From IMG/VR virus record IMGVR_UViG_3300027833_000015, positions 64,001-128,000 of that record: DNA of 64,000 bases; one strand, written 5' to 3'. The notes beneath the pieces were generated by a model that worked only from the letters and a program-made list of their open reading frames with translations, did no database searches and was not told where the DNA came from. Both the position numbers and the translations under genes were made by a program. The stretch comes from a virus. This document shows, in pieces, positions 40,668 through 59,454 of the stretch (positions are counted from its first letter, which is position 1; each line of letters starts with the position of its first letter).

Positions 40668-40845
40668 AATTACTTATCCGATTAGATTGGAGTTCGAGTT
40701 CATTGATGTAGTCATCAAGGAATGCTCGTTTCTTTTCCACCTTATGGGCAAGTTCCTCCTTGCCCTTTCTCGTTAGTTTATGAACATAATTCGATAATTC
40801 TGCGCTATCCTTGCGCAAACGTTCAAGTTGGTTTGATGTTACCAT
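40666..40845 (-). CDS. Small hypothetical protein (59 aa)
   Basis: MVTSNQLERLRKDSAELSNYVHKL...; GGAG RBS. Confidence 0.65.
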   Translation of the reverse strand: MVTSNQLERLRKDSAELSNYVHKLTRKGKEELAHKVEKKRAFLDDYINELELQSNRISN

Positions 40846-40882
40846 AGGCGACTCCGATCTTAAGATAAGTGTTAAGGACGTG

Positions 40883-41332
40883 TCATAACAAATTAGGGAT
40901 TGCCTCCTTCACTCTTTTTACTGTCAACCCTTTGCATGGAGTTTTCTTCGCGACCATGTCGACCAGAATTTCAGCATCTTTTGGGTGGACAGATTCTAGC
41001 ATGCCAATAAAGATAGACTCTCTGCGCATAGCATTCATTTGATCTGCTTTGAGTCCCTTGACAAAATATGTTAATTTCATGTTCTGCTTGTGCCAACTGG
41101 AAGGTGCAGTCTCAGCAACCGATGGAGTAAATGGGGGTCTACTATCGGGGAGAAGAAACTGTATCTTTTCGTCGAACACACAACGAACGTAATCTGCGAA
41201 TGAGGTGTATGTTGTAAGGTAGTATCTGATCAGTTCTACCTTCTTAGCAGGTTTGGTTTCACTGCTAATTGATTCAATTATTTCATACAGTTCAAATCTC
41301 TTTGACCTGCCTTGTTGTGTTTCGGTTATCAT
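40883..41332 (-). CDS. Conserved T4-like hypothetical protein
   Basis: FDEKIQFLLP..PPF, RRESIFIGMLESVHPKDAEIL. Confidence 0.7.
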   Translation of the reverse strand: MITETQQGRSKRFELYEIIESISSETKPAKKVELIRYYLTTYTSFADYVRCVFDEKIQFLLPDSRPPFTPSVAETAPSSWHKQNMKLTYFVKGLKADQMNAMRRESIFIGMLESVHPKDAEILVDMVAKKTPCKGLTVKRVKEAIPNLL

Positions 41333-41422
41333 AAAAGTTTCCTCATAGTTTTATATAGGACTGGCGGCACGGTTTTCGGTGAATCATATACGTCATTATA
41401 CCTATAGGTTTATCATTTCAAA

Positions 41423-41848
41423 CTATGCTTTCTTATTGACAGAAAGATGCGTTCGATTGATTCTACAGTTGATGATGCCGTTGTAATAATCATCGTTGTG
41501 TAAGACCCCACGGTCGAACTGCTCCTTCGTTTCATAATAAGCACAGTCTCCTTTGGTTGCACATAAGCGAATAATCTCTCGCTTGAATGCATCTGCGCCA
41601 TACTGCTCACGCAACTCTTGAACCTTGACTGAACTTCCGAAGTAGTCTTTCCAGTCTGATTCGACCCGAGTGTGCTTCCTGCGCTTACGGGTCTTGGTGA
41701 TTGGCAGTGTCTTCTTTCTGTGGAAGAACTTCTTGCCGACATACTTCATGTCAGTGTTCAGTTCCGTTATGACATAGACGAAACCAACCCAGTGTTCAAG
41801 GGACTCGTACTCTGGCGCAAATTCCTCGCCTTCATAGATCCAGTTCAT
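41423..41848 (-). CDS. GIY-YIG-like nuclease-fold protein
   Basis: GFVYVIT..KYVGKK..WKDYFGSS..FKREI..YYNG; start MNWIY. Confidence 0.7.
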   Translation of the reverse strand: MNWIYEGEEFAPEYESLEHWVGFVYVITELNTDMKYVGKKFFHRKKTLPITKTRKRRKHTRVESDWKDYFGSSVKVQELREQYGADAFKREIIRLCATKGDCAYYETKEQFDRGVLHNDDYYNGIINCRINRTHLSVNKKA

Positions 41849-45459: not shown

Positions 45460-47070
45460 TTATGACCACTTATAATCAGACGCTTTGTAGGTCTTGCTGA
45501 ACTTGGCAAAGTCTTTCTTGATGTATCCTTTGTCTTGTTCTTTGCCTACGAGGTGACGTCCGCGCTTGGAGTCAAGGTAGTCTCTGACGTGAGTATCTTG
45601 TCCACCAGTATGCTTCTTGACATCAGCGTGGGTCTTCGCATATCCTGCTTTGGTCTTCGTTTCGTTACCGCCATGCTTGACGTTATGAGAAGTGTTGTAG
45701 TATCCACCACCTTCGTTTCCGCTCTTGACAGCAAGACCTTCTTGCATAGTCTTCTTGACGATCTTACCCACTGCCTTGTTGTTACCCTTGGCGCGTTTCG
45801 GGTCTTTAGATGCCTTGTTGTTGTAGCGAGTCAGAAGATCTGTGCTCAACTCATCAACCTGCTCGACAGATTCTTTGCGCACTCGATCATACAAGTCGCC
45901 ATTCCACTTCCAGTCTTTCTTATTGAAAGACTTTTTCTTCTTTTCCTTTTGATATTCTGCACTAGACAATTTATTAGTCTTACCAGCATTAGCACGTCCA
46001 GATTCTTCAACCTGCTCGACAGATTCTTTATGACTCAGGCGTGGTTTCTTTCGGGTATCTTTACGACCCTTCATGAAGTCTGCTTTGGACTTAACCTGCT
46101 TGACAGAAGAGTCGCGACTTGTGCTCTGGCCATCGGTAGGATTGATCGTTGATTCTTTCTGTGCGCGTTTGAGTTGTATCTGTTGTGAACGATCAGCACC
46201 GTCCATACGGTTGCTGTGCTTATCCATTGCCTTGGTGAATCGTGCTGCTTGCTTTTGAGTTGCTACACCACTTGCGCTCTTACGAACAGTGGCGATAGTT
46301 TTGTCCATTGTCTTACGCAGGTTCCTTCCACTTGTGGCATTCTTCCTGTCATAACGCTTCAGGAGTTTATTGCTCAACTCATCAACCTGCTCGACAGATT
46401 CGTTTTTCTTTGCGTAACGTGCTTTTTTGACAAGCGCAAACCCTTTAGTTCTATGGCGCAACTTATCGAGTTTAGTCAGACCACCTTTCTTATTGATATT
46501 ATTTGCTGCCCTTGACATACCAAATTCACGGTTCATAGATTTGTGAGAAAGAGTATCAGACCTAGAGTTTTGATCCTTATTCGCTTTCTTCAAATATGAT
46601 ATGCTGGTCGCTTTAGAGAGTTCATCAACTTGCTCGACAGATTCTTTGACTGGTTTGCGATTGAGGATATGTCTGCTGAATGAATCTTTGGAAATATTCT
46701 TATGAGCGGCATCTGCTGCTTTAGGATCTCTGCCATGCTTGACGACGATAGTTTCTTTCTTACCGTTCTTCTGTATACCAGTGCTGTGGGTAGAATACTC
46801 GTACTCTTGCTTCGCTGGTTTTGCTTTCGCTAATGCTGCTTTCTTCGCTTTCTTTTTTGCATTCGCTGCTATTTTGAGATAGTTGGAAGGGATCTTTGCT
46901 TCATCGACTTCAACTTCTTCTTTCTGTTGAATCCTTTTCTTGCCCATGATCTCGATGTAACGTCGAGTGACGGGAGCACGCTTCTTCTTTGAACCCATGT
47001 CAACGGTGTCTTGTGGAATACCAGCATCACCTGCTGTCATTGTTTCTGAGAAGTCACTAAACTTTTTCAT
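45460..47070 (-). CDS. Lys-rich modular polyprotein, putative internal head protein
   Basis: N-terminus MKKFSDFSE; four ESVEQV(D/E)E linkers separating basic modules. Confidence 0.7.
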   Translation of the reverse strand: MKKFSDFSETMTAGDAGIPQDTVDMGSKKKRAPVTRRYIEIMGKKRIQQKEEVEVDEAKIPSNYLKIAANAKKKAKKAALAKAKPAKQEYEYSTHSTGIQKNGKKETIVVKHGRDPKAADAAHKNISKDSFSRHILNRKPVKESVEQVDELSKATSISYLKKANKDQNSRSDTLSHKSMNREFGMSRAANNINKKGGLTKLDKLRHRTKGFALVKKARYAKKNESVEQVDELSNKLLKRYDRKNATSGRNLRKTMDKTIATVRKSASGVATQKQAARFTKAMDKHSNRMDGADRSQQIQLKRAQKESTINPTDGQSTSRDSSVKQVKSKADFMKGRKDTRKKPRLSHKESVEQVEESGRANAGKTNKLSSAEYQKEKKKKSFNKKDWKWNGDLYDRVRKESVEQVDELSTDLLTRYNNKASKDPKRAKGNNKAVGKIVKKTMQEGLAVKSGNEGGGYYNTSHNVKHGGNETKTKAGYAKTHADVKKHTGGQDTHVRDYLDSKRGRHLVGKEQDKGYIKKDFAKFSKTYKASDYKWS

Positions 47071-47127
47071 TACTCTATCCTAGTATTAAACTTATGCATC
47101 TATTTAGTCCAGCAGAGATCTGTGTCT

Positions 47128-47655
47128 CTACTTTCTTTCCAAGTAGAACACTGATTGTTGCGGAGTGGATTTTACTATTATCTTGAATTTCTTTCCGAAG
47201 AATTTCTTCGACATGCGGAGATAGAGTTTCTCTCTACTCGCCAGTGTCTTTGGGTTTGATCCTTTCGGTTTCTCTGCACCGAACGAAACATATTTTGGAT
47301 TTTCTTTCTTTATGAAGTCATCGCATATCTTCATAACAGTAGAGAATATCTTCAGAGCATCTCCACCGCCAGTAACATCATATGATGCTTTTCCGAGGGT
47401 AGTGTATTCCTTGCCGAATTTCGTCAAGACCTGCTTCGACCTTCGACTAAATCCGAGATCCCACATATAATAATCATCATCGTCTGCGTTTTCAGAACCG
47501 ACTATATCGACATCGAGTCGACTTCTTTCTGTCTTTCCGTCTTTGCCTGTGAATTCAGAATCGAACCCGTATGAGTATTCGTCTTCGGCAACCTTCCTGC
47601 CAGTGAACTTATATGAGGAATCAAACGCTTCGTTGAATTGTGAGAATGTTTTCAT
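47128..47655 (-). CDS. Hypothetical protein with capsid-targeting-like leader
   Basis: MKTFSQFNE; GDALKIFSTV...SREKLY. Confidence 0.65.
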   Translation of the reverse strand: MKTFSQFNEAFDSSYKFTGRKVAEDEYSYGFDSEFTGKDGKTERSRLDVDIVGSENADDDDYYMWDLGFSRRSKQVLTKFGKEYTTLGKASYDVTGGGDALKIFSTVMKICDDFIKKENPKYVSFGAEKPKGSNPKTLASREKLYLRMSKKFFGKKFKIIVKSTPQQSVFYLERK

Positions 47656-48239
47656 TATACCTTTCCGTATGAAAACATTATGGGCATCTGCTTGATGCCG
47701 ACTGCCTTTGCAATTCCAAGTCTATGATTGCCTTCCCCCAGAAGAACTTCAACGTCACCGTTCTTTCTTCGGTCGATGGAAACATAACCGTGTTCTTTGA
47801 TTCCGTTCTTCTTGATGTCAGCAGTCAGTTTCTTCATCTCTGCTTCGGTGTTCTTACCAGTGTATCCACCAATCATCTTGCGGTCGTATTCTCTTATCTT
47901 CCACAACTCGCTTACGTCAATCATCGGTGTAAAGTTATCAGCAACCTTTAGGTTACCATTCGCAAATATCTTGATGATGTTCTCAAGTGTTACCTTACCA
48001 CCACATGCTTTTTTCAGTTCGCCTTGTGAACGGACATACTCAGAAAACCCTTCTTGTTTCTGCCCACTGTACTTCCGTGGTCTGTATTGTTTGTACGGAC
48101 TCTTTGGTTTGGCATACTTTGCGAGGACAGCATCCGACTTCTTCATCACCTTATTGATTTCTGCCTGAGAGACAGGTTCAAAGTCTGCGAGTAAGTCGTC
48201 GAGGAAACCCTCTTCGATAAACTGGGAAAATGATTTCAT
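47655..48239 (-). CDS. ParB/Srx-fold protein with capsid-targeting-like leader
   Basis: MKSFSQFIEE; LTADIKKNGIKE..LGEGNHRLGIAKAVG. Confidence 0.7.
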   Translation of the reverse strand: MKSFSQFIEEGFLDDLLADFEPVSQAEINKVMKKSDAVLAKYAKPKSPYKQYRPRKYSGQKQEGFSEYVRSQGELKKACGGKVTLENIIKIFANGNLKVADNFTPMIDVSELWKIREYDRKMIGGYTGKNTEAEMKKLTADIKKNGIKEHGYVSIDRRKNGDVEVLLGEGNHRLGIAKAVGIKQMPIMFSYGKV

Positions 48240-48817
48240 CGTCTCAGTTCTTCACTGGCGACGTAGATCTTTTGGTTAGTGCGAATATGCACTGCTTCGA
48301 ATATGTCCAACCCGAGAATGTTGTCGAGTGGATATGCATTATCAAGCACACGGACTTTATCACCTGCCTTGCAGACTTCTTCGCACGTGCTCGCGAGGAC
48401 TTTGGGTTCAGCGAGTGTATACATGCCACTGGAGAGCATCCCGTCCTTGGCGCAAAACCAAGAGGTGTGTTCTACCAAGTCCAGTGTCGAGTCTAGGTCA
48501 CACGCCTCTACAATTCTCTCCACCCCTGCTTCCCCAAGGTCAAGGTGTTCTTTTATGAGGTAGAGTGCGGACGCATAGGAGGCGAGTTTGGATTTGCCTC
48601 CAGGGACTTTGGCGAGTAATTTCTTGAGGTTGAAGACCAGACGGTGGAATAAGTTGTATGCACTTTTCTCGTCATTGCCTTCGGGCGAGCGGAGTTTCTT
48701 TCCGTCTTTGTCTATAAGACCCATCTTGAATGCATTGCTATCTTCGAAACTGGTTGTCAGCAAACGCAAGAAGCGCAGCGTGTAGACCAAATCAGCAGTT
48801 TTAGAAAGTATACCCAT
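48236..48817 (-). CDS. Conserved T4-like hypothetical protein
   Basis: YTLRFLRLL..AFKMGLIDKDG..FHRLVFNLKK..SYASALYLIKE. Confidence 0.7.
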   Translation of the reverse strand: MGILSKTADLVYTLRFLRLLTTSFEDSNAFKMGLIDKDGKKLRSPEGNDEKSAYNLFHRLVFNLKKLLAKVPGGKSKLASYASALYLIKEHLDLGEAGVERIVEACDLDSTLDLVEHTSWFCAKDGMLSSGMYTLAEPKVLASTCEEVCKAGDKVRVLDNAYPLDNILGLDIFEAVHIRTNQKIYVASEELRR

Positions 48818-49182
48818 TAAATTGTTTCCAGTCTGGCGACCACTACAGGGTCTCCTATAATTCCTTCAAGATCGCCTTCTTTCAATGCAACAAGGTGTTC
48901 AAGAAATGGTTTTATCACACTGAGATTGTCTGGACCCAACTTGAACAGCAGCATAAGTATTGCTGGTTCATTACCAAACACATTCAATAATATGATAACA
49001 TGATTCAGTATCAATCGTTCACAGAGTTCACCGCCTCTGGTGTATCTGTTTATCAATCTCTTGATGTACTTAAAACGATTAAGTTCTTCGTAAAAATCTT
49101 CCGCATCTATCGCGCGAGGACTATAATAATTATTCGCAGCGTAGATGAGGAAGATTTCATCGTTTAGTTCTTTGACGATCAT
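48817..49182 (-). CDS. Conserved T4-like hypothetical protein
   Basis: FYEELNRFKYIKRL..ERLILNHVIILLNVFG. Confidence 0.7.
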   Translation of the reverse strand: MIVKELNDEIFLIYAANNYYSPRAIDAEDFYEELNRFKYIKRLINRYTRGGELCERLILNHVIILLNVFGNEPAILMLLFKLGPDNLSVIKPFLEHLVALKEGDLEGIIGDPVVVARLETI

Positions 49183-49218
49183 GCAGATTCCTCTATAGTA
49201 TAGAGTTATCTATAACTT

Positions 49219-49557
49219 CTATTCGGAACGCAGTTCCAAGTCAGCAATCATGTTCACCTTAGTCATCCTTCGATCAAGTTCGATATCCAGAGTTCGACCA
49301 TAGTGTTCAATCTGCGACTTATTCATACGCATCAGAGTAGCAGCACTCTTTCGATCATCCTTGACCACTTCAACTTTATCAGAATGGTGCTCTGCTTCCA
49401 CTTTATCCATCTCGTCTTCGATATCAACCAGACTCATAGTCTGATGGTGGATGATACCTAGATCTTCGCTGTCACTCTTCATGAACTTGACAACAAAGGT
49501 GATGACGATACATGCTATTGCTCCGAGAGCAAGAACCTGTGGTGATAATAAATCCAT
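49219..49557 (-). CDS. Membrane-anchored protein with small C-terminal helical (Rho-N/HeH-like) domain
   Basis: N-terminal TM; MNKSQIEHYGRTLDIELDRRMTK. Confidence 0.55.
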   Translation of the reverse strand: MDLLSPQVLALGAIACIVITFVVKFMKSDSEDLGIIHHQTMSLVDIEDEMDKVEAEHHSDKVEVVKDDRKSAATLMRMNKSQIEHYGRTLDIELDRRMTKVNMIADLELRSE

Positions 49558-49578
49558 AATAATTTCCTTAGTTTACGT

Positions 49579-51048
49579 TTAATCGTGATGAGTTTTTTGA
49601 CCAAGATTATCTTTTGTGTACCCTGTTGCCTTCATGTGCGCCTTATATGCTTTGTGGGAGTCACTACCCTTTCCACCAAGATGCTTCTTGACAAAATCAC
49701 CGTGAAACCCCTTCTTGCTACCCGACACCATGCCATTATCGTGGTTATTAGCATCTGCTGAGTGTTGCTTTACAGCGGATGCAGCGGATGCACCGTGAAC
49801 CTTTTTAATTCGGTTCAGAGTCGCCTTTGCCGCATGTCCTGCGCGTTCTGGGTCGGGGTGACCCATATCTGGATCTGAGTTACCATGGTGCTCAAAATGC
49901 TTTGCTGCAAGATGCCCCAAATCACTATTACTAGACTCCAGAATTTGACGAAGTTCTTCGATCTCCGTCTTCAGTGCATCAACTTCTTCAGTTACTTTTT
50001 TTTTAACAGGATTGACAACTGCCTTGTCGCCATTCTTGAGTTGATCAGAATTACCACGTGCTGGAGATGCTTTAGTAGCACGACCTGCTTTGGATACATC
50101 CTTGTGTCCCTGCTCTTCTTTGTCTTCGATGTCTTTCTCAGACTTCTTGTGCATAGCAATGAAGTCTTTTGACTTGTTAGACTCTTTATCAGCAATGCCT
50201 TCAGGGTTAGTTGCGCCCTTGGTGTGCTCGTCTGATTTCTCATCAAGACCTTGAAGGATAACAGCGAGGTCTTGCAACCATGCAGACTCTTCAACAGATT
50301 CTTTTCGAGTCGCTGGAACCTTTGCATACTTGCCTTTGATCTTGTCACCTGCCCAACCAGATCCAGTAACACGCTTGTCGAATTTTGCGTGAGAAGAGGC
50401 AGGTGGTTTCTTACCGCCATGATCAAACTTTGACATATGGTCTGTTGTTTGAGCGTCTGCTTTTTTCTTATATCGGGTCAACAGTTTCTTTGATAGTTCG
50501 TCCAGTTGCTCTTCGCACAGTCCATCGACAATATCTTCAACAGATTCTTTTCGAGTCGCTGGAACCTTTGCATACTTGCCTTTGATCTTGTCACCTGCCC
50601 AACCAGATCCAGTAACACGCTTGTCGAATTTTGCGTGGGATCCTGCTGGTGGTTTCTTACCGCCATGGTCGTACTTTGACATATGATCTGTTGTTTGAGC
50701 GTCTGCTTTTTTCTTGTATCGGGTCAACAGTTTCTTCGATAGTTCGTCCAGTTGCTCTTCGTCCAGACTCCCGACAAAATCTTCAACAGATTCTTTCTTG
50801 ACGCTTGGCAGGTCAGAGGCATCAGGGTTAGACTTGTCGCCTTTGCGCACTGGTGCTTTCTTGTTATGAGCAGCAGGTGCTTCTTCAACAACGTCTGCTT
50901 TGTTCTTCTTATTGCGGAGGTCAGCAAGGTCGTCGCCTTCGATGTCACCATCGTTATCGACGTCGAGTGCTTTCTGCTTGTCAGAAAGTTTCTTCTCTTG
51001 TACTTCCTGGAACGCAGTCCAGATTGCTTCGATTTCTTTAATGTCCAT
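49579..51048 (-). CDS. Modular putative internal head protein with tandem duplication
   Basis: LDVDNDGDIEGDDL motif; KESVE linkers; 82-aa duplicated module. Confidence 0.7.
   Translation of the reverse strand: MDIKEIEAIWTAFQEVQEKKLSDKQKALDVDNDGDIEGDDLADLRNKKNKADVVEEAPAAHNKKAPVRKGDKSNPDASDLPSVKKESVEDFVGSLDEEQLDELSKKLLTRYKKKADAQTTDHMSKYDHGGKKPPAGSHAKFDKRVTGSGWAGDKIKGKYAKVPATRKESVEDIVDGLCEEQLDELSKKLLTRYKKKADAQTTDHMSKFDHGGKKPPASSHAKFDKRVTGSGWAGDKIKGKYAKVPATRKESVEESAWLQDLAVILQGLDEKSDEHTKGATNPEGIADKESNKSKDFIAMHKKSEKDIEDKEEQGHKDVSKAGRATKASPARGNSDQLKNGDKAVVNPVKKKVTEEVDALKTEIEELRQILESSNSDLGHLAAKHFEHHGNSDPDMGHPDPERAGHAAKATLNRIKKVHGASAASAVKQHSADANNHDNGMVSGSKKGFHGDFVKKHLGGKGSDSHKAYKAHMKATGYTKDNLGQKTHHD
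50288..50795 (-). repeat. Tandem 246-bp direct repeat (two copies plus a linker)
   Basis: TCTTCAACAGATTCTTT recurs at 50288, 50534 and 50780; the two units are nearly identical. Confidence 0.95.
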
Positions 51049-51064
51049 CTTGATACCTATTGTA

Positions 51065-51418
51065 TTATTCGTTTGAGTCGGTTCTATTTATACTATCTTC
51101 ATAGTACACTATTATACTTTGTTGCTGCTCGATGTATCTTCTTATTTCTGCCATGTTTAGTGACAAATTCTCATAGTCAGGAACCGAGATAGCGATATAG
51201 ACGTTGTCACCAGTTTCTTTCCTAAACTCCACCTTGAACTGTTCTTCGTTCTGAGGAGTAACAACGCGCCACTCTATGTCTTGCATTACGACAGCACGTG
51301 GACGACCCTTTGGTTCTATAACCTGATCGACATATTCAATTTTAGTTATTGTCTTTCCAGCACATCCGCTAATTAGCAGTAATAGACTCAAGGTTATCAA
51401 ATACCTTACGTGTACCAT
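51065..51418 (-). CDS. Outer-membrane spanin (Rz1-like lipoprotein)
   Basis: Lipobox LISGC; overlaps the upstream coiled-coil membrane gene. Confidence 0.75.
   Translation of the reverse strand: MVHVRYLITLSLLLLISGCAGKTITKIEYVDQVIEPKGRPRAVVMQDIEWRVVTPQNEEQFKVEFRKETGDNVYIAISVPDYENLSLNMAEIRRYIEQQQSIIVYYEDSINRTDSNE
51085..51092 (-). promoter_or_regulatory. Late promoter TATAAATA upstream of the 489-aa gene
   Basis: Exact consensus 37 nt upstream of the ATG. Confidence 0.6.
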
Positions 51419-51749
51419 TGTTTATAATCCTTTCTATCATTTCAGGTTTCCGTGTAGCAAGATTAGTCAGTTGATGATCCCTGAATATCTGCAACACCTC
51501 TTCGCGTTTCTCTTCAGCACTAAGCATGTTGGCAGAAAGTTCAACGTTCAACTCTGCCTGTGCTCTTGCTTGCTCGAGCAACTGCCCAACAGCAGCAGCG
51601 TTAGCAATTGCTGTTTCTTCAAGCACAGCGTTCTCTGCTATAAGGTTGTCTATCTTCTTGACCTGCCACCACACAATACCAGAAACACCACCAACTATAG
51701 TGGTGATGACAACTGCTATGATTGCATACTTCTGTACTGCACCAAACAT
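51369..51749 (-). CDS. Inner-membrane spanin (Rz-like)
   Basis: N-terminal TM followed by coiled coil, KPEMIERIINNGT. Confidence 0.75.
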   Translation of the reverse strand: MFGAVQKYAIIAVVITTIVGGVSGIVWWQVKKIDNLIAENAVLEETAIANAAAVGQLLEQARAQAELNVELSANMLSAEEKREEVLQIFRDHQLTNLATRKPEMIERIINNGTRKVFDNLESITAN

Positions 51750-51750
51750 T

Positions 51751-54726
51751 TTACTTCATTCCTCTCAGTGCTTTGGTCATCAACACGACGAACTTACGCT
51801 TGTCGACAGGTTTCTGTATAGCATCATGCTTCTTCAGAAGAGCATCGATCTTACCTTTGCTCAACGCCACAGTACGAGTTGGCGAGACGAGAACATCGCC
51901 AGTTTTGTCGCCATGGTTCATAGAGTCTTGCGCGATACGGAGTTGCATGATGATGTTACGATCAGAAGCATCAGCAGAACCTTTGTGGGTTTTGCCCTTG
52001 GCAGTCTTTGTAGTAGTCTTCGCCTTTGGTGCTGCTTTCTTCGCTTTCTTCTCTGCTGCAACTGCTGCTTGTGCCTTTGCTTTCAGAGCGCGGAACTCTG
52101 GACCACGTGGTATGTTCTTTGGACCACCAACCATATCTTGCATCTTCTTGACTACAACATCAGACAGTGCTTCGTTGACTTTGCCCCAGTTACCTGAGAT
52201 TGAATCTGTCATAGTATCTTCTCCAAGTGATTTCTTTTTCTTCCTCAGCGCGACCAGTTTTTCGAGGTAGTGCTTACGCTGCCAGTGCTGGTCTGCTTGT
52301 GTTGGGTTCATTGGTCGTCTTTTGTGATCTGCCTGACCCTGTTTGATTTCTTGGGTAGTGTCTTTGATTTCACGGTTGACCTCTTTCATAGACCACTTTG
52401 GGTTTATATTGAGGACTAACTTTCTGCCTTCTTCAACTTGCCTGAAAGATTCGTTTTTCTGTTCTTTCTTTGCGTCATCGTATGCGCGTCTTGCTACCTG
52501 TTTGATTATCTTGCCTATGGCATGTGTAGTTTGACGTTGCGTTGAAGACATATCGTCCCCGTACACTATTTTGCCCTGCTCCTTCGCCTTTTTTTCTCCC
52601 TTGTTAAAACGAGGGTTTTGGCCAAGATTCCTCTTCTCTCCACTGGCCATTGTTCTTATATAACCTTTCTGTAGAGTTCCGAGTTTCGCTGCCACCTTTG
52701 CATCAACTGTCTTGAAAACATACTTATCAAGTTTGTCTCGACCACCTTGTTTAAATGCAGCAACGCCATCTTTCCTGACGAAGACGACAGACCTGACGAT
52801 CTTATCAAACTCGGGGTCTGCTTCCATTGCCATACGAATTTGATCTTCTAGTGCTTTGTCTTTCGCTTTTCTCTTATTTTTCTTGGTTGGTATTGCGGCA
52901 CCGACAGCAACAATAAAATCACGAATATCGTTCAACACGCCTTCATCAACTTGCTCGACAGATTCCATTCGACCTTGTACCTTATTCGTTGTATAACTAC
53001 CAACCTTGGTAGTCTTATTTGCGTTGTCAGCATACTTCTTTGCTGCTGATGCTGATTTGAAATTCTTTGAAGACGAATCTGCTTTGCCTTTCTCGTCGCG
53101 GAACTGGACGGAGAAATATGCTTCTTCAACTTGCTCAACAGATTCTTTGACACCCTTATACTTCTTTATTCCTTTTGCTACTTCCTTCTTCGCAGCGGTT
53201 TTACTAGAAATCCTCTCGATTTGTTGTATTGCACTTTGGTAAAAATTACTATCATATCTACTGAGAGTTTTTGGGAGTCCTCCAGATTTCTTGAGGTAGT
53301 GGTTTATGGTGTCTTTTGCATCATCAAGTAGTTCTGGTTCTTTCTCTTTTCGCGCTTGCGAACGATCCGCATCGTTCTGTTTACGGATACGCATAACGGA
53401 CGACCTTGTTGGTCCCCAAGTATTGAGACCGTGCACGCCACCGCCACGCGTGGACTCATCAACTTGCTGGACTGCTTCCCTGATGCTGACGTTTGGTGCA
53501 GGGTGTACGCTCGCAGACGGGTGGATCTCGATGAACTTTTCTCTGCCCGTCTCCATGTCCATTATCCTGCCTACAAAATCTTCGTCATTGTTATCTCTAC
53601 CCAGTTCAACATAGACAAAATACTTCTTTCCAACCAGTTCGACGGAAAGTCTTACGATCTTCTTCTTCTTTGACTTCGCCAGTTTGAATATGTTAGTCAC
53701 GACTCGTTTTACTTTTGCTGGTAAGTCGTCTTTGGACAGATAATTAGAAGATGCTTCGAGAACCTGCTGGTATGACTCAGTAGATGCGACCTTCGCTGTA
53801 CCAGTCTGCTTCTTGAGTCCTAACTTGATTCCTTTCTCTCGCTTGGCGCGGAGTTTAGAATCGCCTCTGGTCTTTGCATCGTCAGACTGATGCATAGACT
53901 TCGACAAGTAGTTGTGGACTTTGTCGTTTGACAACTCATCCAACTTGCTTGATTCTTTAGGGACACAATTCGGTACGGTCTTACCACCTTTCTTCTTGGT
54001 GCCTACCTGCTTGTGCGAGTCCCAACATGCTTCTGTTTGGACATCTTGGTGTGCGGGAACCATCTTGACACCAGTAGTGCCATCTGGTTTCTTGAATTTT
54101 ACTGGTTTCTTTGCAGAAGAATTTGGGTCACCTGCGTCTTCAGATACCCGATCATTCTCGCGCTCTTGCTTCTTGGCGAGTCGAACCTTTTGATTCGCGT
54201 GTCGCAGTTTCATTCTTGCTGAGTCCTTTTCTGATTTGGCGTTTTCGACAGATTCCTTTTGCAGTTCCGAACTTTGCATTCTATGCGATACGAGCGAGGA
54301 ATTATCTGCGAGACTAACACCATGAATGCCTTTCTTAGCAAGACCAGTCGCAGTACGATTGACTTTAACTTTCTTTCCATGTAACTCATGACCTTTCTTG
54401 TTCACTACACGAGTTGATCCCATCGGGTGTGGGTTCTTTGCTTCATCAACTTGCTCGACAGATTCGTTCTTGCTGTGTGTCCAACCTCTTGCCTTCAATA
54501 CAAGGTGGGTCGCTTTGCTATCTGCGCGCTTCGTCTCGCCTGTGTCTGGATGGAACATATCATGGGGTACAAACTCGTCAGCAGACTCATACCTGTTCGA
54601 GTGCTTGCTGTAACCACGCTTGTCGTCTTTCTTACGGTCGCGTTGGACAGTTGCCTTGTTGAAAGTTCTCATGTGTTTCGCAACTGGGTTGCCTTTGTTT
54701 GACGGTGGTGTGCTTTTATCTTTCAT
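51751..54726 (-). CDS. Large Lys-rich modular polyprotein, putative internal head protein
   Basis: Repeated ESVEQV(D/E)E-type linkers; modules include CWDSHKQVGTKKKGGKTVPNCV. Confidence 0.7.
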   Translation of the reverse strand: MKDKSTPPSNKGNPVAKHMRTFNKATVQRDRKKDDKRGYSKHSNRYESADEFVPHDMFHPDTGETKRADSKATHLVLKARGWTHSKNESVEQVDEAKNPHPMGSTRVVNKKGHELHGKKVKVNRTATGLAKKGIHGVSLADNSSLVSHRMQSSELQKESVENAKSEKDSARMKLRHANQKVRLAKKQERENDRVSEDAGDPNSSAKKPVKFKKPDGTTGVKMVPAHQDVQTEACWDSHKQVGTKKKGGKTVPNCVPKESSKLDELSNDKVHNYLSKSMHQSDDAKTRGDSKLRAKREKGIKLGLKKQTGTAKVASTESYQQVLEASSNYLSKDDLPAKVKRVVTNIFKLAKSKKKKIVRLSVELVGKKYFVYVELGRDNNDEDFVGRIMDMETGREKFIEIHPSASVHPAPNVSIREAVQQVDESTRGGGVHGLNTWGPTRSSVMRIRKQNDADRSQARKEKEPELLDDAKDTINHYLKKSGGLPKTLSRYDSNFYQSAIQQIERISSKTAAKKEVAKGIKKYKGVKESVEQVEEAYFSVQFRDEKGKADSSSKNFKSASAAKKYADNANKTTKVGSYTTNKVQGRMESVEQVDEGVLNDIRDFIVAVGAAIPTKKNKRKAKDKALEDQIRMAMEADPEFDKIVRSVVFVRKDGVAAFKQGGRDKLDKYVFKTVDAKVAAKLGTLQKGYIRTMASGEKRNLGQNPRFNKGEKKAKEQGKIVYGDDMSSTQRQTTHAIGKIIKQVARRAYDDAKKEQKNESFRQVEEGRKLVLNINPKWSMKEVNREIKDTTQEIKQGQADHKRRPMNPTQADQHWQRKHYLEKLVALRKKKKSLGEDTMTDSISGNWGKVNEALSDVVVKKMQDMVGGPKNIPRGPEFRALKAKAQAAVAAEKKAKKAAPKAKTTTKTAKGKTHKGSADASDRNIIMQLRIAQDSMNHGDKTGDVLVSPTRTVALSKGKIDALLKKHDAIQKPVDKRKFVVLMTKALRGMK

Positions 54727-54911
54727 GGGTTGCCTTTGTAATTTAGTGTAACTTCTTTACCCTGATATGTTGCTTCGGTGAACTCTTTAAACGACTTCAT
54801 GCCCGTCTCATTTGGCGTCAACTTCTTTGCTCGACGAACAGAGGCATCCGTGCCCCACTCATGCTTACATGGATCATACTGATCTGATTTCTTGTCCGTC
54901 TTTTTTCGCAT
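54723..54911 (-). CDS. Small basic protein
   Basis: HEWGTD..KKLTP then MKSFKEFTE; coupled to neighbours. Confidence 0.55.
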   Translation of the reverse strand: MRKKTDKKSDQYDPCKHEWGTDASVRRAKKLTPNETGMKSFKEFTEATYQGKEVTLNYKGNP

Positions 54912-55061
54912 TTATCTTAACTTCTTCAACTCAAGTTCGTGGTGCTTGACTTTCTTCTTATCGAAGAACCGTGTACCCTTCAAGGCATGCAGTTTCATAA
55001 GAGCATCTTGATGAAACTTCTTATCTTCTTTGCCCTCATTAAACTCTCTGAACCTTATCAT
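54912..55061 (-). CDS. Small basic protein (49 aa) with capsid-targeting-like leader
   Basis: MIRFREFNEGKEDKKFHQDALMKL...KKLR*; follows a late promoter. Confidence 0.6.
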   Translation of the reverse strand: MIRFREFNEGKEDKKFHQDALMKLHALKGTRFFDKKKVKHHELELKKLR

Positions 55062-55085: not shown

Positions 55086-55093
55086 TATTTATA
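55086..55093 (-). promoter_or_regulatory. Late promoter TATAAATA
   Basis: Exact consensus. Confidence 0.7.
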
Positions 55094-56854: not shown

Positions 56855-57853
56855 TTATTTGATTCGTGATGCGAATGGGGTTATTCTTTTCTTCATCGCT
56901 TTCTGAAGACCAGCATTCTTTGATGCGTTTACTGTGGCATATCGTTTCTTGCCGCCACGGACAGGGTTTGGTATAAACTCTGCGCCAGTTGGTGCAGGGA
57001 TAAACTCTGCGCTTGACGGTATGTCGCTTCCTTCCTCGACTTTCTCAACTGCGTCCAACCATTTACGCTTAAACGTCTCTTCGCCCAGTTGGACTATTAT
57101 ATAGTTGCTACCGAGGTGTGTTATAATACCGACTTCGTCAGACTCCCTGACAACCACTTGGTCGCCCAGTTCAAACAGTTCGCCTTTGACAAACTTCTCT
57201 CGAGTCTCTGATACTGGTTCCAGTTCAACGTGCCGACTGAATACTGTATTCTCTTTGAGTCCCATACCTGAGCGCACATCCATATAGAGTTTCTTGGCGT
57301 CCTTGTTATTCATGCCACCCAGACCCTGCGAGAAATCAGCAAAGTTGTTGTCAGCAGCATGCTTACGCATCTTAGATGCCGACATACCATCAACTCCATC
57401 TGAATCTGGATCACGTTCACCAGCAGAGACGATATTGATTGACTGGAAGTTATAGAAACCGTGGTTGCCCTTCACACCATTGTACTTGTCGAGCAAGGTC
57501 TTGAACTCACGGACTCGGTCAGAACCAACAACCATAGTGACGGTCTTGAACCCTTGGTCGTAGAGATACGATGCTGCGTCAAATGGAGTGCGGACTTTCT
57601 TGTTCACGATAATCCTTCGCGCGTGTCTCGGGAACATCTTACGAACGTGCTTGACTTTATCGGTGTATGATAGTGGGTTCTTCTTGGCGTCTTGCGACTG
57701 AGACAAGAATACGAAATATGGGTTCTTACCAGATGCCTTGCCGAGTTTGTCGAGAAGTTTCTCGTGCCCGACAGTCGGTGGGTTCATACGACCGAATGTG
57801 AAGTATGCTGCCTTGCCGTCTTCAATAAGGTAGTCTTTGAATGATATAGGCAT
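56855..57853 (-). CDS. HxGH-family nucleotidyltransferase (cytidyltransferase-like)
   Basis: FTFGRMNPPTVGH, KNPL, VVGSDR, SAGERDPD, MSASKMR. Confidence 0.85.
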   Translation of the reverse strand: MPISFKDYLIEDGKAAYFTFGRMNPPTVGHEKLLDKLGKASGKNPYFVFLSQSQDAKKNPLSYTDKVKHVRKMFPRHARRIIVNKKVRTPFDAASYLYDQGFKTVTMVVGSDRVREFKTLLDKYNGVKGNHGFYNFQSINIVSAGERDPDSDGVDGMSASKMRKHAADNNFADFSQGLGGMNNKDAKKLYMDVRSGMGLKENTVFSRHVELEPVSETREKFVKGELFELGDQVVVRESDEVGIITHLGSNYIIVQLGEETFKRKWLDAVEKVEEGSDIPSSAEFIPAPTGAEFIPNPVRGGKKRYATVNASKNAGLQKAMKKRITPFASRIK

Positions 57854-57854
57854 C

Positions 57855-58241
57855 TTACTTGTCGTCCTTACCTTTGTTTGCTTTGCGTTCTCTGTCCTGC
57901 TTGCGTATCGCTGGAATCATTTTCTTGGCCAGACGCGCAATGACTGCTGACTTCTTTGCCAGACGCTTTTCAATATCAGTCCGTCGAGAGAAAGACAATT
58001 CATCTTTGCCCGCACCCTTGGTCAACTTCTTCATCATTACAATTCTTGCTTGCCTGTTAGCGCGTTTCTTGACAGTGTCCATGTTAGGCGTTCTGCGCGC
58101 AGCACGTTCGCGACCAATCTTCATACGATTCTTCATCTTCTTCATGCGAAGAGATGCTTTGATTCTCTGTGAATGCGTGAGTGCCTCATCAGTCTGTTCG
58201 ACCTCTTGACTCTCCATAAACTCTATTAACGACTTCGGCAT
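57855..58241 (-). CDS. Basic hypothetical protein
   Basis: MPKSLIEFME..DEALTHSQRIK; Arg/Lys-rich. Confidence 0.65.
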   Translation of the reverse strand: MPKSLIEFMESQEVEQTDEALTHSQRIKASLRMKKMKNRMKIGRERAARRTPNMDTVKKRANRQARIVMMKKLTKGAGKDELSFSRRTDIEKRLAKKSAVIARLAKKMIPAIRKQDRERKANKGKDDK

Positions 58242-58242
58242 T

Positions 58243-59454
58243 CTACTTCCTGTTAGTATTCTCCCAACCCTTGAGGATATCAGGAGAGAAATTGTTGTAC
58301 GAGAATTCCATACGGTTGACCAGTTTGACAGCACCACCACCCAGTTTGTCTATAACGACAAAACCTTCTTGGTCAGTTACTCTATAACCTTTCTTGGTCC
58401 GTACAAAAGCATCGATTCCCGCTAACTTGCTCATTCTATTTATAAGGATCAATTTCGCTAATACTATTTTCTTTTGCAATTCGAACATTTGTATTAGTGC
58501 AGCAGTGTTACCTTTCGAGAAGAACTTCAACAGCAGGTTCAACTTCTGCTGTTGTGCCTTCTTGCCTTTCTCTGACTTACGCTTGCTGATCTCTTTGGTG
58601 TATTTAGTAGTCAACCAAGATTGTAGTTTGAGGACGTGAATCTTGCTATCAGGCAGAACTGTACCTGCTCGGACAAACGTGTTGTTGTATTGCTCGATCA
58701 ATTGGGGCAACTCGGGGTGCGCTTCCAACTCACGGAGCACACCACCTGAAATCTTGCGGAATATCTTTCCTGCGTCCTTGAGGTATGCGTCCACCTTCTT
58801 GGTGTTCTCAGCAGTCATGGTCGCTGTTCCGCTGAAATCGCGCAGCATGGCATCCTGTGACCAAATCTTCTTGGTCTTCTTCAGACGCTTCACGTCCACG
58901 CCATAAGACGCTGACATATTCTCGAATGAGTCGCCTTTGTATGTGGTGTGCCACACGATACCGATCTGCGCATCACGCACTGCCTTCGCTGCTGCGTCCT
59001 TATATGGGATTGCGTACACGAGTGTGTTCGGGTGGAATGTGGTGTATTTCTCACCGTCTATCCGAGTCGCCTCAACATCCGAGGCACTGAACAGGAAGTC
59101 GCCTTGTATGACACCTTTGATGCCAAGTAGTGGTAGCAACTCAAGAGCAGCATTCATCTTCTGGTTGAGGTCACCCGAGGTGTCTGCATCAACGTCTGCT
59201 TTGGTCTTATATACTTTGGGGTTCTTGTTGAAGATACCCTTCTTGGCGACAAAGAATTTGCCATCCGATGGATCTGTTCCAGCGAATATTGCTGGTGCGC
59301 CATCCCACTTCACTGAGACGTCACCTTTGTGTTTCCCGTGAAGCATGTTGCGCAATGAGACCAGACCAGCGATTGCTTGTCGAGTCCCGTCAACTCCACC
59401 ATAGAGGACTTTGTCCTCGATGTGGGTCATGTGAGTATTCTTGTCACCTGCCAT
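58243..59454 (-). CDS. DUF6267-like protein with ligase-type nucleotidyltransferase motifs
   Basis: KNTHMTHIED, SVKWDGAPA, QGD, EGFVV, VKLVNR.EFS. Confidence 0.7.
   Translation of the reverse strand: MAGDKNTHMTHIEDKVLYGGVDGTRQAIAGLVSLRNMLHGKHKGDVSVKWDGAPAIFAGTDPSDGKFFVAKKGIFNKNPKVYKTKADVDADTSGDLNQKMNAALELLPLLGIKGVIQGDFLFSASDVEATRIDGEKYTTFHPNTLVYAIPYKDAAAKAVRDAQIGIVWHTTYKGDSFENMSASYGVDVKRLKKTKKIWSQDAMLRDFSGTATMTAENTKKVDAYLKDAGKIFRKISGGVLRELEAHPELPQLIEQYNNTFVRAGTVLPDSKIHVLKLQSWLTTKYTKEISKRKSEKGKKAQQQKLNLLLKFFSKGNTAALIQMFELQKKIVLAKLILINRMSKLAGIDAFVRTKKGYRVTDQEGFVVIDKLGGGAVKLVNRMEFSYNNFSPDILKGWENTNRK

Follow-up and report, generated by a model that had tools for sequence, protein, structure and literature searches.

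We analyzed a stretch of DNA of 64,000 nucleotides (the window), i.e., bases 64001-128000 of one 153,883-bp virus record (IMG/VR IMGVR_UViG_3300027833_000015), and found that a 24-nt unit encoding the linker peptide ESVEQV(D/E)E is very likely to serve as a DNA recombination joint, at which related phages swap modules of large polyproteins. The polyprotein locus (window 45460-55061) contains three polyprotein genes of 536, 489 and 991 aa, all on the minus strand. A recombination role for this linker had been proposed by an earlier reading made from the letters alone (the sequence-only reading), and the comparison of genomes bears it out: breakpoints fall at or in the linker, relatives differ in the number and order of their modules, and silent-site divergence is mosaic. 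Judging by its sequence context, the joint is probably also a targeting/cleavage signal, and we lean slightly toward the full reading, in which the polyproteins would be packaged cargo processed by the phage protease.

The unit GAATCTGTYGAGCARGTTGAWGAR has seven exact copies in the window (45850, 46003, 46378, 46621, 52942, 53122 and 54442), at precisely the seven sites of the 536-aa and 991-aa genes where the sequence-only reading had placed it, and two further copies with three mismatches each (52429, encoding ESFRQVEE, and 53455, encoding EAVQQVDE), which had been reported as variants. A third reported variant, at about 53935, is KESSKLDE (~53935-53955), and the KESVE forms reported for the 489-aa gene are present at aa 86, 168 and 250. 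No match to the unit was obtained in 100 shuffles, all real copies are on the minus strand within two genes, and the linker peptide motif has no occurrence elsewhere in the 153,883-bp genome in any frame. The features of the locus are as follows (L004 and L014 denote relatives).

45460..47070, minus strand: P0001, 536-aa polyprotein; leader MKKFSDFSE, conserved N-terminal module, cassettes with four canonical linkers; net charge +64
45850..45873, minus strand: linker ESVEQVDE (P0001)
46003..46026, minus strand: linker ESVEQVEE (P0001)
46378..46401, minus strand: linker ESVEQVDE (P0001)
46621..46644, minus strand: linker ESVEQVDE (P0001)
46900..46920, minus strand: degenerate first joint EEVEVDE of P0001 (aa 51-57), directly after a part equal to the whole 53-aa gene in L014
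47128..47655, minus strand: 175-aa gene, leader MKTFSQFNE
47655..48239, minus strand: 194-aa gene, leader MKSFSQFIEE
49579..51048, minus strand: P0003, 489-aa polyprotein; split joints KESVE...QLDE at aa 86/99 and 168/181, KESVE at aa 250
50288..50796, minus strand: 246-bp in-frame tandem duplication in P0003; 2.1 copies, 92% matches, unit boundaries at the KESVE joints
51085..51092, minus strand: TATAAATA, ~37 nt upstream of the 489-aa gene
51751..54726, minus strand: P0002, 991-aa polyprotein; N-terminal DUF7230 module, five inner cassettes, conserved C-terminal module; net charge +84
52429..52452, minus strand: decayed linker ESFRQVEE (P0002)
52942..52965, minus strand: linker ESVEQVDE (P0002)
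53122..53145, minus strand: linker ESVEQVEE (P0002)
53455..53478, minus strand: linker variant EAVQQVDE (P0002); its 5' half travels with the upstream module B in both genomes (this one and L004)
54244..54255, minus strand: half joint KESVEN (P0002), start of module B; homology to L004 begins here
54442..54465, minus strand: linker ESVEQVDE (P0002)
54723..54911, minus strand: 62-aa remnant of the relatives' 117-119-aa gene; internal MKSFKEFTE; overlaps the start of the 991-aa gene (ATGA)
54912..55061, minus strand: 49-aa gene; leader MIRFREFNE plus a module found between two linkers in the L004 polyprotein
55086..55093, minus strand: TATAAATA, ~25 nt upstream of the 49-aa gene, the first gene of the run with the 991-aa polyprotein

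An important feature of the linker is the conservation of its silent sites, which the sequence-only reading had noticed and which stands when checked against codon usage. The codon usage of the genome is mildly biased (TCT is 29% of Ser codons, GTC 28% and GTT 33% of Val codons, GAA 58% of Glu codons). In the linker copies, codons are fixed by position without exception (GAA for Glu1, TCT for Ser, GAG for Glu4, GTT for Val6), and the frequency of differing synonymous codons among copies, within the genome and in comparison to a relative, is 0.15-0.18, whereas codon usage predicts 0.59. The five capsid-targeting-like leaders of the same locus serve as a comparison: their peptide is kept, their codons are not. 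Because the leaders vary at silent sites, peptide function alone fails to explain the identity of the linker DNA. If, conversely, the unit were kept for a function of the nucleic acid (as an RNA structure, a protein-binding site or a sequence recognised by a site-specific enzyme), with the peptide merely incidental, conserved silent sites would be expected, and variants of the unit with CAG can indeed form a 7-bp hairpin (-5.3 kcal/mol). However, the variants with CAA lose this hairpin, the folding z-score averages -0.1 around the seven copies, and no consistent RNA structure was found at the joints when these seven copies were folded. In addition, the unit is always in one frame and within open reading frames (ORFs), and more distant families keep the peptide E-[E/D]-[V/I]-E-Q-[V/I]-D-E without the DNA identity, which argues for selection on the peptide. 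We consider a purely nucleic-acid function highly improbable.

Relatives were collected by an exact-pattern scan of viral contigs, which yielded eight loci, and by protein searches, which yielded 36 long and 47 short relatives plus 39 relatives of the 536-aa gene. Modules were clustered with the joints stripped and with a coverage filter (single-linkage clustering with the joints left in merged everything), resulting in 226 modules in 70 families. Across approximately 80 metagenomic relatives the same modules recur in differing numbers and orders. The N-terminal DUF7230 module and the C-terminal module are common to the architectures, and the inner cassettes vary in number and order.

The closest relative, L004, likewise has 991 aa, and the shared blocks are 92-95% identical. 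Compared to L004, one cassette has moved from position 2 to position 5 in the window gene, and other cassettes have been replaced. In the DNA, near-identity gives way to a lack of similarity at or within the 24 nt at every one of the six junctions (6/6). For example, the 5' half of one joint, EAVQ, stays with its upstream module in both genomes, and therefore a crossover is placed inside the joint. The silent-site divergence of the blocks shared by the window and L004 is 0.058, 0.072, 0.224 and 0.429, and these differences among blocks mean that the blocks have different histories. Across all long relatives, 86 of the 241 internal ends of homology blocks (36%) are within 6 aa of a recognised joint, compared to a random expectation of 27.7 +/- 5.1 (11.5%; maximum 46 in 1000 trials), an approximately 3-fold enrichment. 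It should be noted that the relatives are all metagenomic, and chimeric contigs joined at the repeat could in principle mimic mosaics. We regard such an assembly artefact as almost certainly not the explanation: a repeat of 24 nt is much shorter than the words that assemblers use (one contig name shows k141), the same architectures appear in independent samples and sources, and the reading frame is intact in every case.

Synteny with two further relatives indicated three variable sites at fixed positions, with the following lengths of the encoded proteins: 475, 991 and 1279 aa for the DUF7230 polyprotein, 254, 398 and 489 aa for the P0003-like protein, and 53, 314 and 536 aa for the gene that precedes nrdA. 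The 53-aa form of the last is the leader plus the first module alone, and the close relatives of P0001 (405-740 aa) have the same head and tail with different cassettes between them. Cassettes accrete behind the 53-aa leader gene, from which the 53-aa, 314-aa and 405-740-aa forms result. We also observed that the 991-aa gene and its L004 counterpart (L004 636-3611) are equal in length, although 241 aa of inner cassettes have been exchanged for a different 241 aa; this is probably a coincidence, the other relatives being 975-1193 aa long.

The source virus is an uncultured, aquatic T4-like myovirus. Almost every gene of the window is on the minus strand, and matches to PHROG and Pfam in the window include T4-type baseplate wedge and hub proteins, the gp32 single-strand binding protein, NrdA/NrdB and T4-type spanins. 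For the gp6 homologue, the best relatives in culture all belong to the aquatic T4-like phages (Phage C48C1, Methylophilales phage Melnitz, Pelagibacter phage HTVC008M and cyanomyoviruses), with identities of only 30-34%. The head module is outside the window in the same record and consists of gp20, a very acidic gp67, gp68, gp21, gp22 and gp23 (E 4e-147); the gene of the gp21-type prohead protease occupies genome positions 40760-41425 on the minus strand, with the Peptidase_S77 match (PF03420, E 1.3e-39) at 40928-41356. When the gp23 propeptide was aligned to the T4 cleavage point, the sequence was ..SQFMTE followed by TAAN here and ..GFLTE followed by TAPT in a complete relative (G001). The protease of this lineage is thus expected to cut after hydrophobic-x-Glu, as in T4, because the gp23 propeptide aligns at the T4 cut site. 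The T4 late-promoter consensus TATAAATA has 17 copies on the coding (minus) strand of the whole genome and none on the plus strand; copies are located just upstream of gp68, gp18, the 489-aa gene, the 49-aa gene and a 365-aa gene, and together they are likely to form a set of late promoters.

The T4 capsid targeting sequence (CTS) is MKTYQEFIAE (PMC8442874), in which residues 4 and 7 play a part in targeting, and residues 8 and 10 in processing (PMC9026906). We scanned 3,856 ATG-started frames of the genome for the leader pattern M-x-x-[FYW]-x-[EDQ]-[FIL]-x(1-2)-E. Five fitting frames are in the polyprotein locus, with leaders resembling MKxFSxFxE: the 536-aa gene (MKKFSDFSE), the 175-aa gene (MKTFSQFNE), the 194-aa gene (MKSFSQFIEE), a 25-aa remnant (MKSFKEFTE) and the 49-aa gene (MIRFREFNE). 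A sixth fitting frame is outside the window (genome 57978-58283) and has Trp and Ile at the key positions. Looser forms of the leader were found in the prohead core protein gp68 (MKYFSEI), the protease itself (MKLIAEFNE) and a cytidyltransferase-like gene (MPISFKDYLIE). In the complete relative G001 (138,622 bp, terminal repeats, its own S77 protease), all nine joints are in one 4-kb stretch, and four consecutive leader genes adjoin this stretch across the circular junction, beside the polyproteins.

A connection between leader and joint is provided by three cassettes that are stand-alone genes with a leader in some places and parts of polyproteins preceded by a joint in others, with coinciding boundaries in each case. 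The first is MIRFREFNE followed by GKEDKKFHQDALMKLH (window 54912-55061) versus ..ESVEQVDE followed by SKETKKQHQDALMKLH in L004, so that the boundary reads FNE-GKEDKK versus VDE-SKETKK. The second is MTISFKGFVDQLDE, a leader ending in VDQLDE, followed by LTQREKEMIA (P0159) versus ESVEQVDE followed by the same LTQREKEMIA (L010). The third is MSKTFKEFAE followed by ACWDSHK (P0198) versus ..VQTE followed by ACWDSHK within P0002. Leader and joint have the pattern S-hydrophobic-x-x-hydrophobic-x-E in common (SFSQFNE versus SVEQVDE). We compiled 190 joints, the consensus of which is [K/N/R]-E-S-V-E-Q-V-[D/E]-E (ESVEQVDE itself was counted 77 times among the first set of relatives); the residue after the joint is A in 47, G in 45, L in 21 and I in 18 cases, so that A or G accounts for 48%. 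In the 489-aa gene, the KESVE and QLDE halves are nine residues apart, and this separation suggests two elements, i.e., that a joint may combine the tail of one cassette with the leader of the following one.

These observations can be combined in a scenario in which window 45460-55061 would be a hyperplastic internal-protein locus of this T4-like myovirus, with three late genes encoding chains of small, basic, largely unstructured cassettes, each preceded by the acidic K-E-S-V-E-Q-V-D/E-E. In the DNA, as the comparison of genomes shows, the 24-nt joint provides a patch of near-identity, through which homologous recombination adds, deletes, duplicates and reorders cassettes in frame, within and between genes and phages; in the protein, the joint would be the internal counterpart of the N-terminal capsid-targeting/processing leader M-K-x-F-S-x-F-x-E of stand-alone cassettes. 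Once the polyprotein had been taken into the prohead core, it would be cut by the gp21-type protease behind the final Glu (V-D/E-E before A, G or L), possibly after S-V-E too. The basic peptides so released would remain associated with the DNA and reach the host cell by injection, like the T4 internal proteins (IP) IPI-III. The cleavage rule of T4 that the sequence-only reading had quoted, L/I-x-E, is correct, and the T4 gp21 was first defined by a Glu-Ala cut (PMC9026906). The claim that the polyprotein is cut inside the head has gained indirect support, namely a gp21-type protease of the virus's own, the leaders, the register shared by leader and linker, V-D/E-E followed mostly by A/G, and the late-promoter consensus sites upstream.

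Several observations weigh against this scenario. The joint has Val at P3, where the T4 rule has Leu/Ile, and there are decayed joints (ESFRQVEE here, SSVELRKL in relatives), so that cleavage cannot be indispensable at each and every joint. An N-terminal leader is missing from the 991-aa and 489-aa genes. The motif [LI]xE is depleted inside the modules only weakly (observed/expected 0.78, z -1.7, versus 1.17 in control ORFs), only 86 of the 241 block ends are near recognised joints, and two of the four joints of P0001 are inside low-confidence helices of an AlphaFold model (mean pLDDT 40), which is a poor guide to how accessible the joints are. Some of these points would be expected if the proteins acted whole, as beads on a string: disordered nucleic-acid-binding proteins, packaged or not, in which the joint is a spacer or counter-charge and a patch of homology. 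P0001 is predicted to be mostly disordered or helical, decayed joints are tolerated, and two of the three genes lack a leader. However, the T4-like leader of the three stand-alone cassettes ends in the register of the joint, and distant families, which do not share the DNA identity, still have hydrophobic-x-Glu and then a small residue, always, which would be needless for a spacer. We consider the uncleaved alternative unlikely, with appreciable weight left to it. Less probable still is that the joints are cut in the cytoplasm, by some other protease of phage or host, to yield late-acting small peptides (lysis, host shut-off) instead of capsid cargo. Two spanin genes come directly after the 991-aa gene, and this gene is among those without a leader; yet the leader pattern is limited to the locus plus gp68 and the protease, no other protease was noticed in the locus, and the basic, Lys-rich composition resembles that of T4 internal proteins.

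The closest known system is that of the internal proteins of T-even phages (IPI, IPII, IPIII and Alt, with their CTS and gp21). The likeness consists in the gp21 homologue, a leader that resembles the CTS in pattern (aromatics at positions 4 and 7, an end in hydrophobic-x-Glu) on the 536-aa gene and four neighbouring ORFs, basic Lys-rich products, and a hypervariable non-core locus with the late-promoter consensus upstream; the locus is indeed basic by the net charges of its products, non-core, and hypervariable by gene lengths at syntenic sites, as is expected of internal proteins. However, T4 internal proteins are single and cut once, whereas here up to seven or more cassettes are in one frame behind internal joints. 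Moreover, the joint has Val in place of the Tyr/Phe and Leu/Ile of T4, and its DNA is near-identical among copies, unlike that of the leaders.

Many modules per polypeptide and extensive mosaicism are also typical of the polyvalent proteins of phages and conjugative elements, for which virion packaging and delivery with the DNA have been predicted (Iyer et al. 2017, PMC5512222). Polyvalent proteins contain recognisable enzyme domains and often their own peptidase (PMC5512222), whereas here we found basic modules of 40-260 aa, DUF7230 and DUF5824 only, and one joint conserved at the nucleotide level. The two to 15 recognisable effector/enzyme domains of a polyvalent protein were not found, the only Pfam match being DUF7230 in P0002, and no peptidase (e.g., MPTase), MuF or portal domain was found. 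PeSL are mobile regulatory cassettes of T4-type phages, in which an intergenic element of early promoter plus stem-loop shuffles whole genes (Arbiol et al. 2010, PMC2839356), and less than 50 bp of homology is enough for T4-type recombination (PMC2839356). As with PeSL, the variable units of a hyperplastic region are bordered here by short conserved patches, at which related phages gain, lose or exchange units; unlike PeSL, the patch is coding, in frame, shuffles parts of one protein and has no consistent stem-loop. The inner-body and ejection proteins of phiKZ, 201phi2-1 and SPN3US are cut at several S/A-x-E sites by a gp21-related protease, and S-V-E fits S-x-E; however, these are giant phages of another lineage, with paralogue families and not cassette chains with a DNA-conserved joint.

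The locus matched no GenBank phage at the DNA level, tblastn with P0001 and with P0002 gave no match among these phages either, and a full-text literature search retrieved no paper naming the linker motif, DUF7230 or DUF5824. The paper on PhiM9 contains no proteomics of relevance here. Distant queries reached only gp064 of Caulobacter phage Cr30 plus single modules in cyanophages and a pelagiphage. The gp064 protein (YP_009098822.1, 682 aa; L023 2765-4813) is encoded by a cultured T4-like phage in a gene that adjoins a cytidyltransferase gene, as the polyprotein locus does here, and has repeated ESE(E/N)(M/L)(I/N)E units and ELDE followed by ISKATLGSYIKKAS, similar to the ELSxxLLxRYxxKA heads of this locus. 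It differs in the joint sequence and in a charge near neutral (117 K+R versus 105 D+E), and the similarity is only 32% over 39% of a distant query. Cr30 gp064 is a possible experimental model for such repeat polyproteins.

The recombination half of the proposal already has its sequence evidence, and with it the idea of conserved "linkers" in the modular evolution of phages extends beyond gene boundaries into the interior of genes. A broader suggestion, to which we give slightly less than even credence, is that T4-like phages have an in-frame cassette system, a "protein-level integron", in which one sequence would be both a capsid-targeting/protease signal and a recombination site; small genes acquiring it would be spliced in, co-packaged at fixed stoichiometry and injected, and the joints would differ by lineage, matched to the lineage's own protease. 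What sets this locus apart from the T4 internal proteins is that many cassettes share a single reading frame, chained by an internal joint whose DNA is conserved. Should cutting at the joints take place in the head, a single gene would supply the capsid with many different small basic peptides, and a population could re-deal this payload by simple homologous recombination with reading frames intact. If true, injected cargo for counter-defence or DNA handling could be diversified compactly in this way, hundreds of orphan small proteins in aquatic phage metagenomes would find an explanation, and the loading of T4-type capsids with multiple proteins could follow a natural design rule (leader or joint plus cargo). 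The effector roles that the sequence-only reading had assigned to the peptides (DNA condensation, anti-defence, takeover) are guesses.

The modules are Lys-rich, with net charges of +64 for the 536-aa and +84 for the 991-aa protein; lysines of T4 internal proteins contact packaged DNA (PMC3012670). The statement that modules are mostly unrelated is valid in part only: approximately one fifth start with LSxxLLxRYxxKA, and the 489-aa gene contains the 246-bp tandem duplication. The Pfam search detected DUF7230 in P0002 and nothing significant in P0001 or P0003. DUF5824 is found in a leader-bearing stand-alone gene in some relatives and as a cassette in others. DUF7230 as an ArfA-like ribosome rescue peptide was rejected: Pfam ArfA (PF03889) is unmatched genome-wide even at E <= 10. 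The conserved C-terminal domain of P0002 (window 51751-52191) was modelled by AlphaFold with moderate confidence (pLDDT 76), its last 65 residues forming a helix, a beta-hairpin and two helices. Since there was no match in PDB at E <= 0.001 (the best was the lambda head-completion protein gpW, E 1.4, TM 0.45 on target), no function was assigned to this domain.

A Cys-containing module, ACWDSHKQVGTKKKGGKTVPNCVPK, is present in many of 800 representatives (E <= 0.001) from a library of 1.84 billion proteins and is often placed between x-D/A-E and KESVE. A two-Cys module of 25-30 aa (ACWDxHKQVGTKxKGGKxVPNCVPK) occurs at window 53950-54030 (P0002 aa 232-258), in P0196, P0198, P0214 and others; it is extremely common in metagenomic phage proteins, where it may be N-terminal, internal or C-terminal, sometimes with two copies per protein. 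Some cassettes carry a DnaJ-like zinc motif, CPKCEGKGCxHCDG (L013 14545-15741; P0089, P0094, P0097).

Several minor observations concern the leaders and neighboring genes. In window 56855-58340 (minus strand), the frame after the cytidyltransferase-like enzyme has an internal start, MPKSLIEFMESQEVEQTDE followed by ALT, and then a very basic protein (net +27); the basic protein at 57855-58340 has the looser leader and immediately after it EVEQTDE, so that a leader and a joint-like motif adjoin outside the polyproteins. The 194-aa protein (47655-48239) has weak ParB_N-like signals (PHROG ParB-like, E 0.009), and its language-model neighbour cluster has ParB_N in 35% of members (score 0.90), a lead only. 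ParB-like domains are known among capsid-packaged proteins of phage P1. The relatives' 117-119-aa gene, the source of the 62-aa remnant, consists of a HEWGTDAS module, MKSFKEFTE and a DUF5824-like module; in the L014 counterpart, the leader-like motif is internal and without Met (KRFKEFTE followed by ATYQ). A 14-nt word, ACAAAGGCAACCCA, occurs at the end of the 62-aa ORF and at codons 10-14 of the 991-aa gene (window 54680-54760, minus strand), and its presence at both places suggests that the 62-aa ORF arose by a deletion through microhomology.

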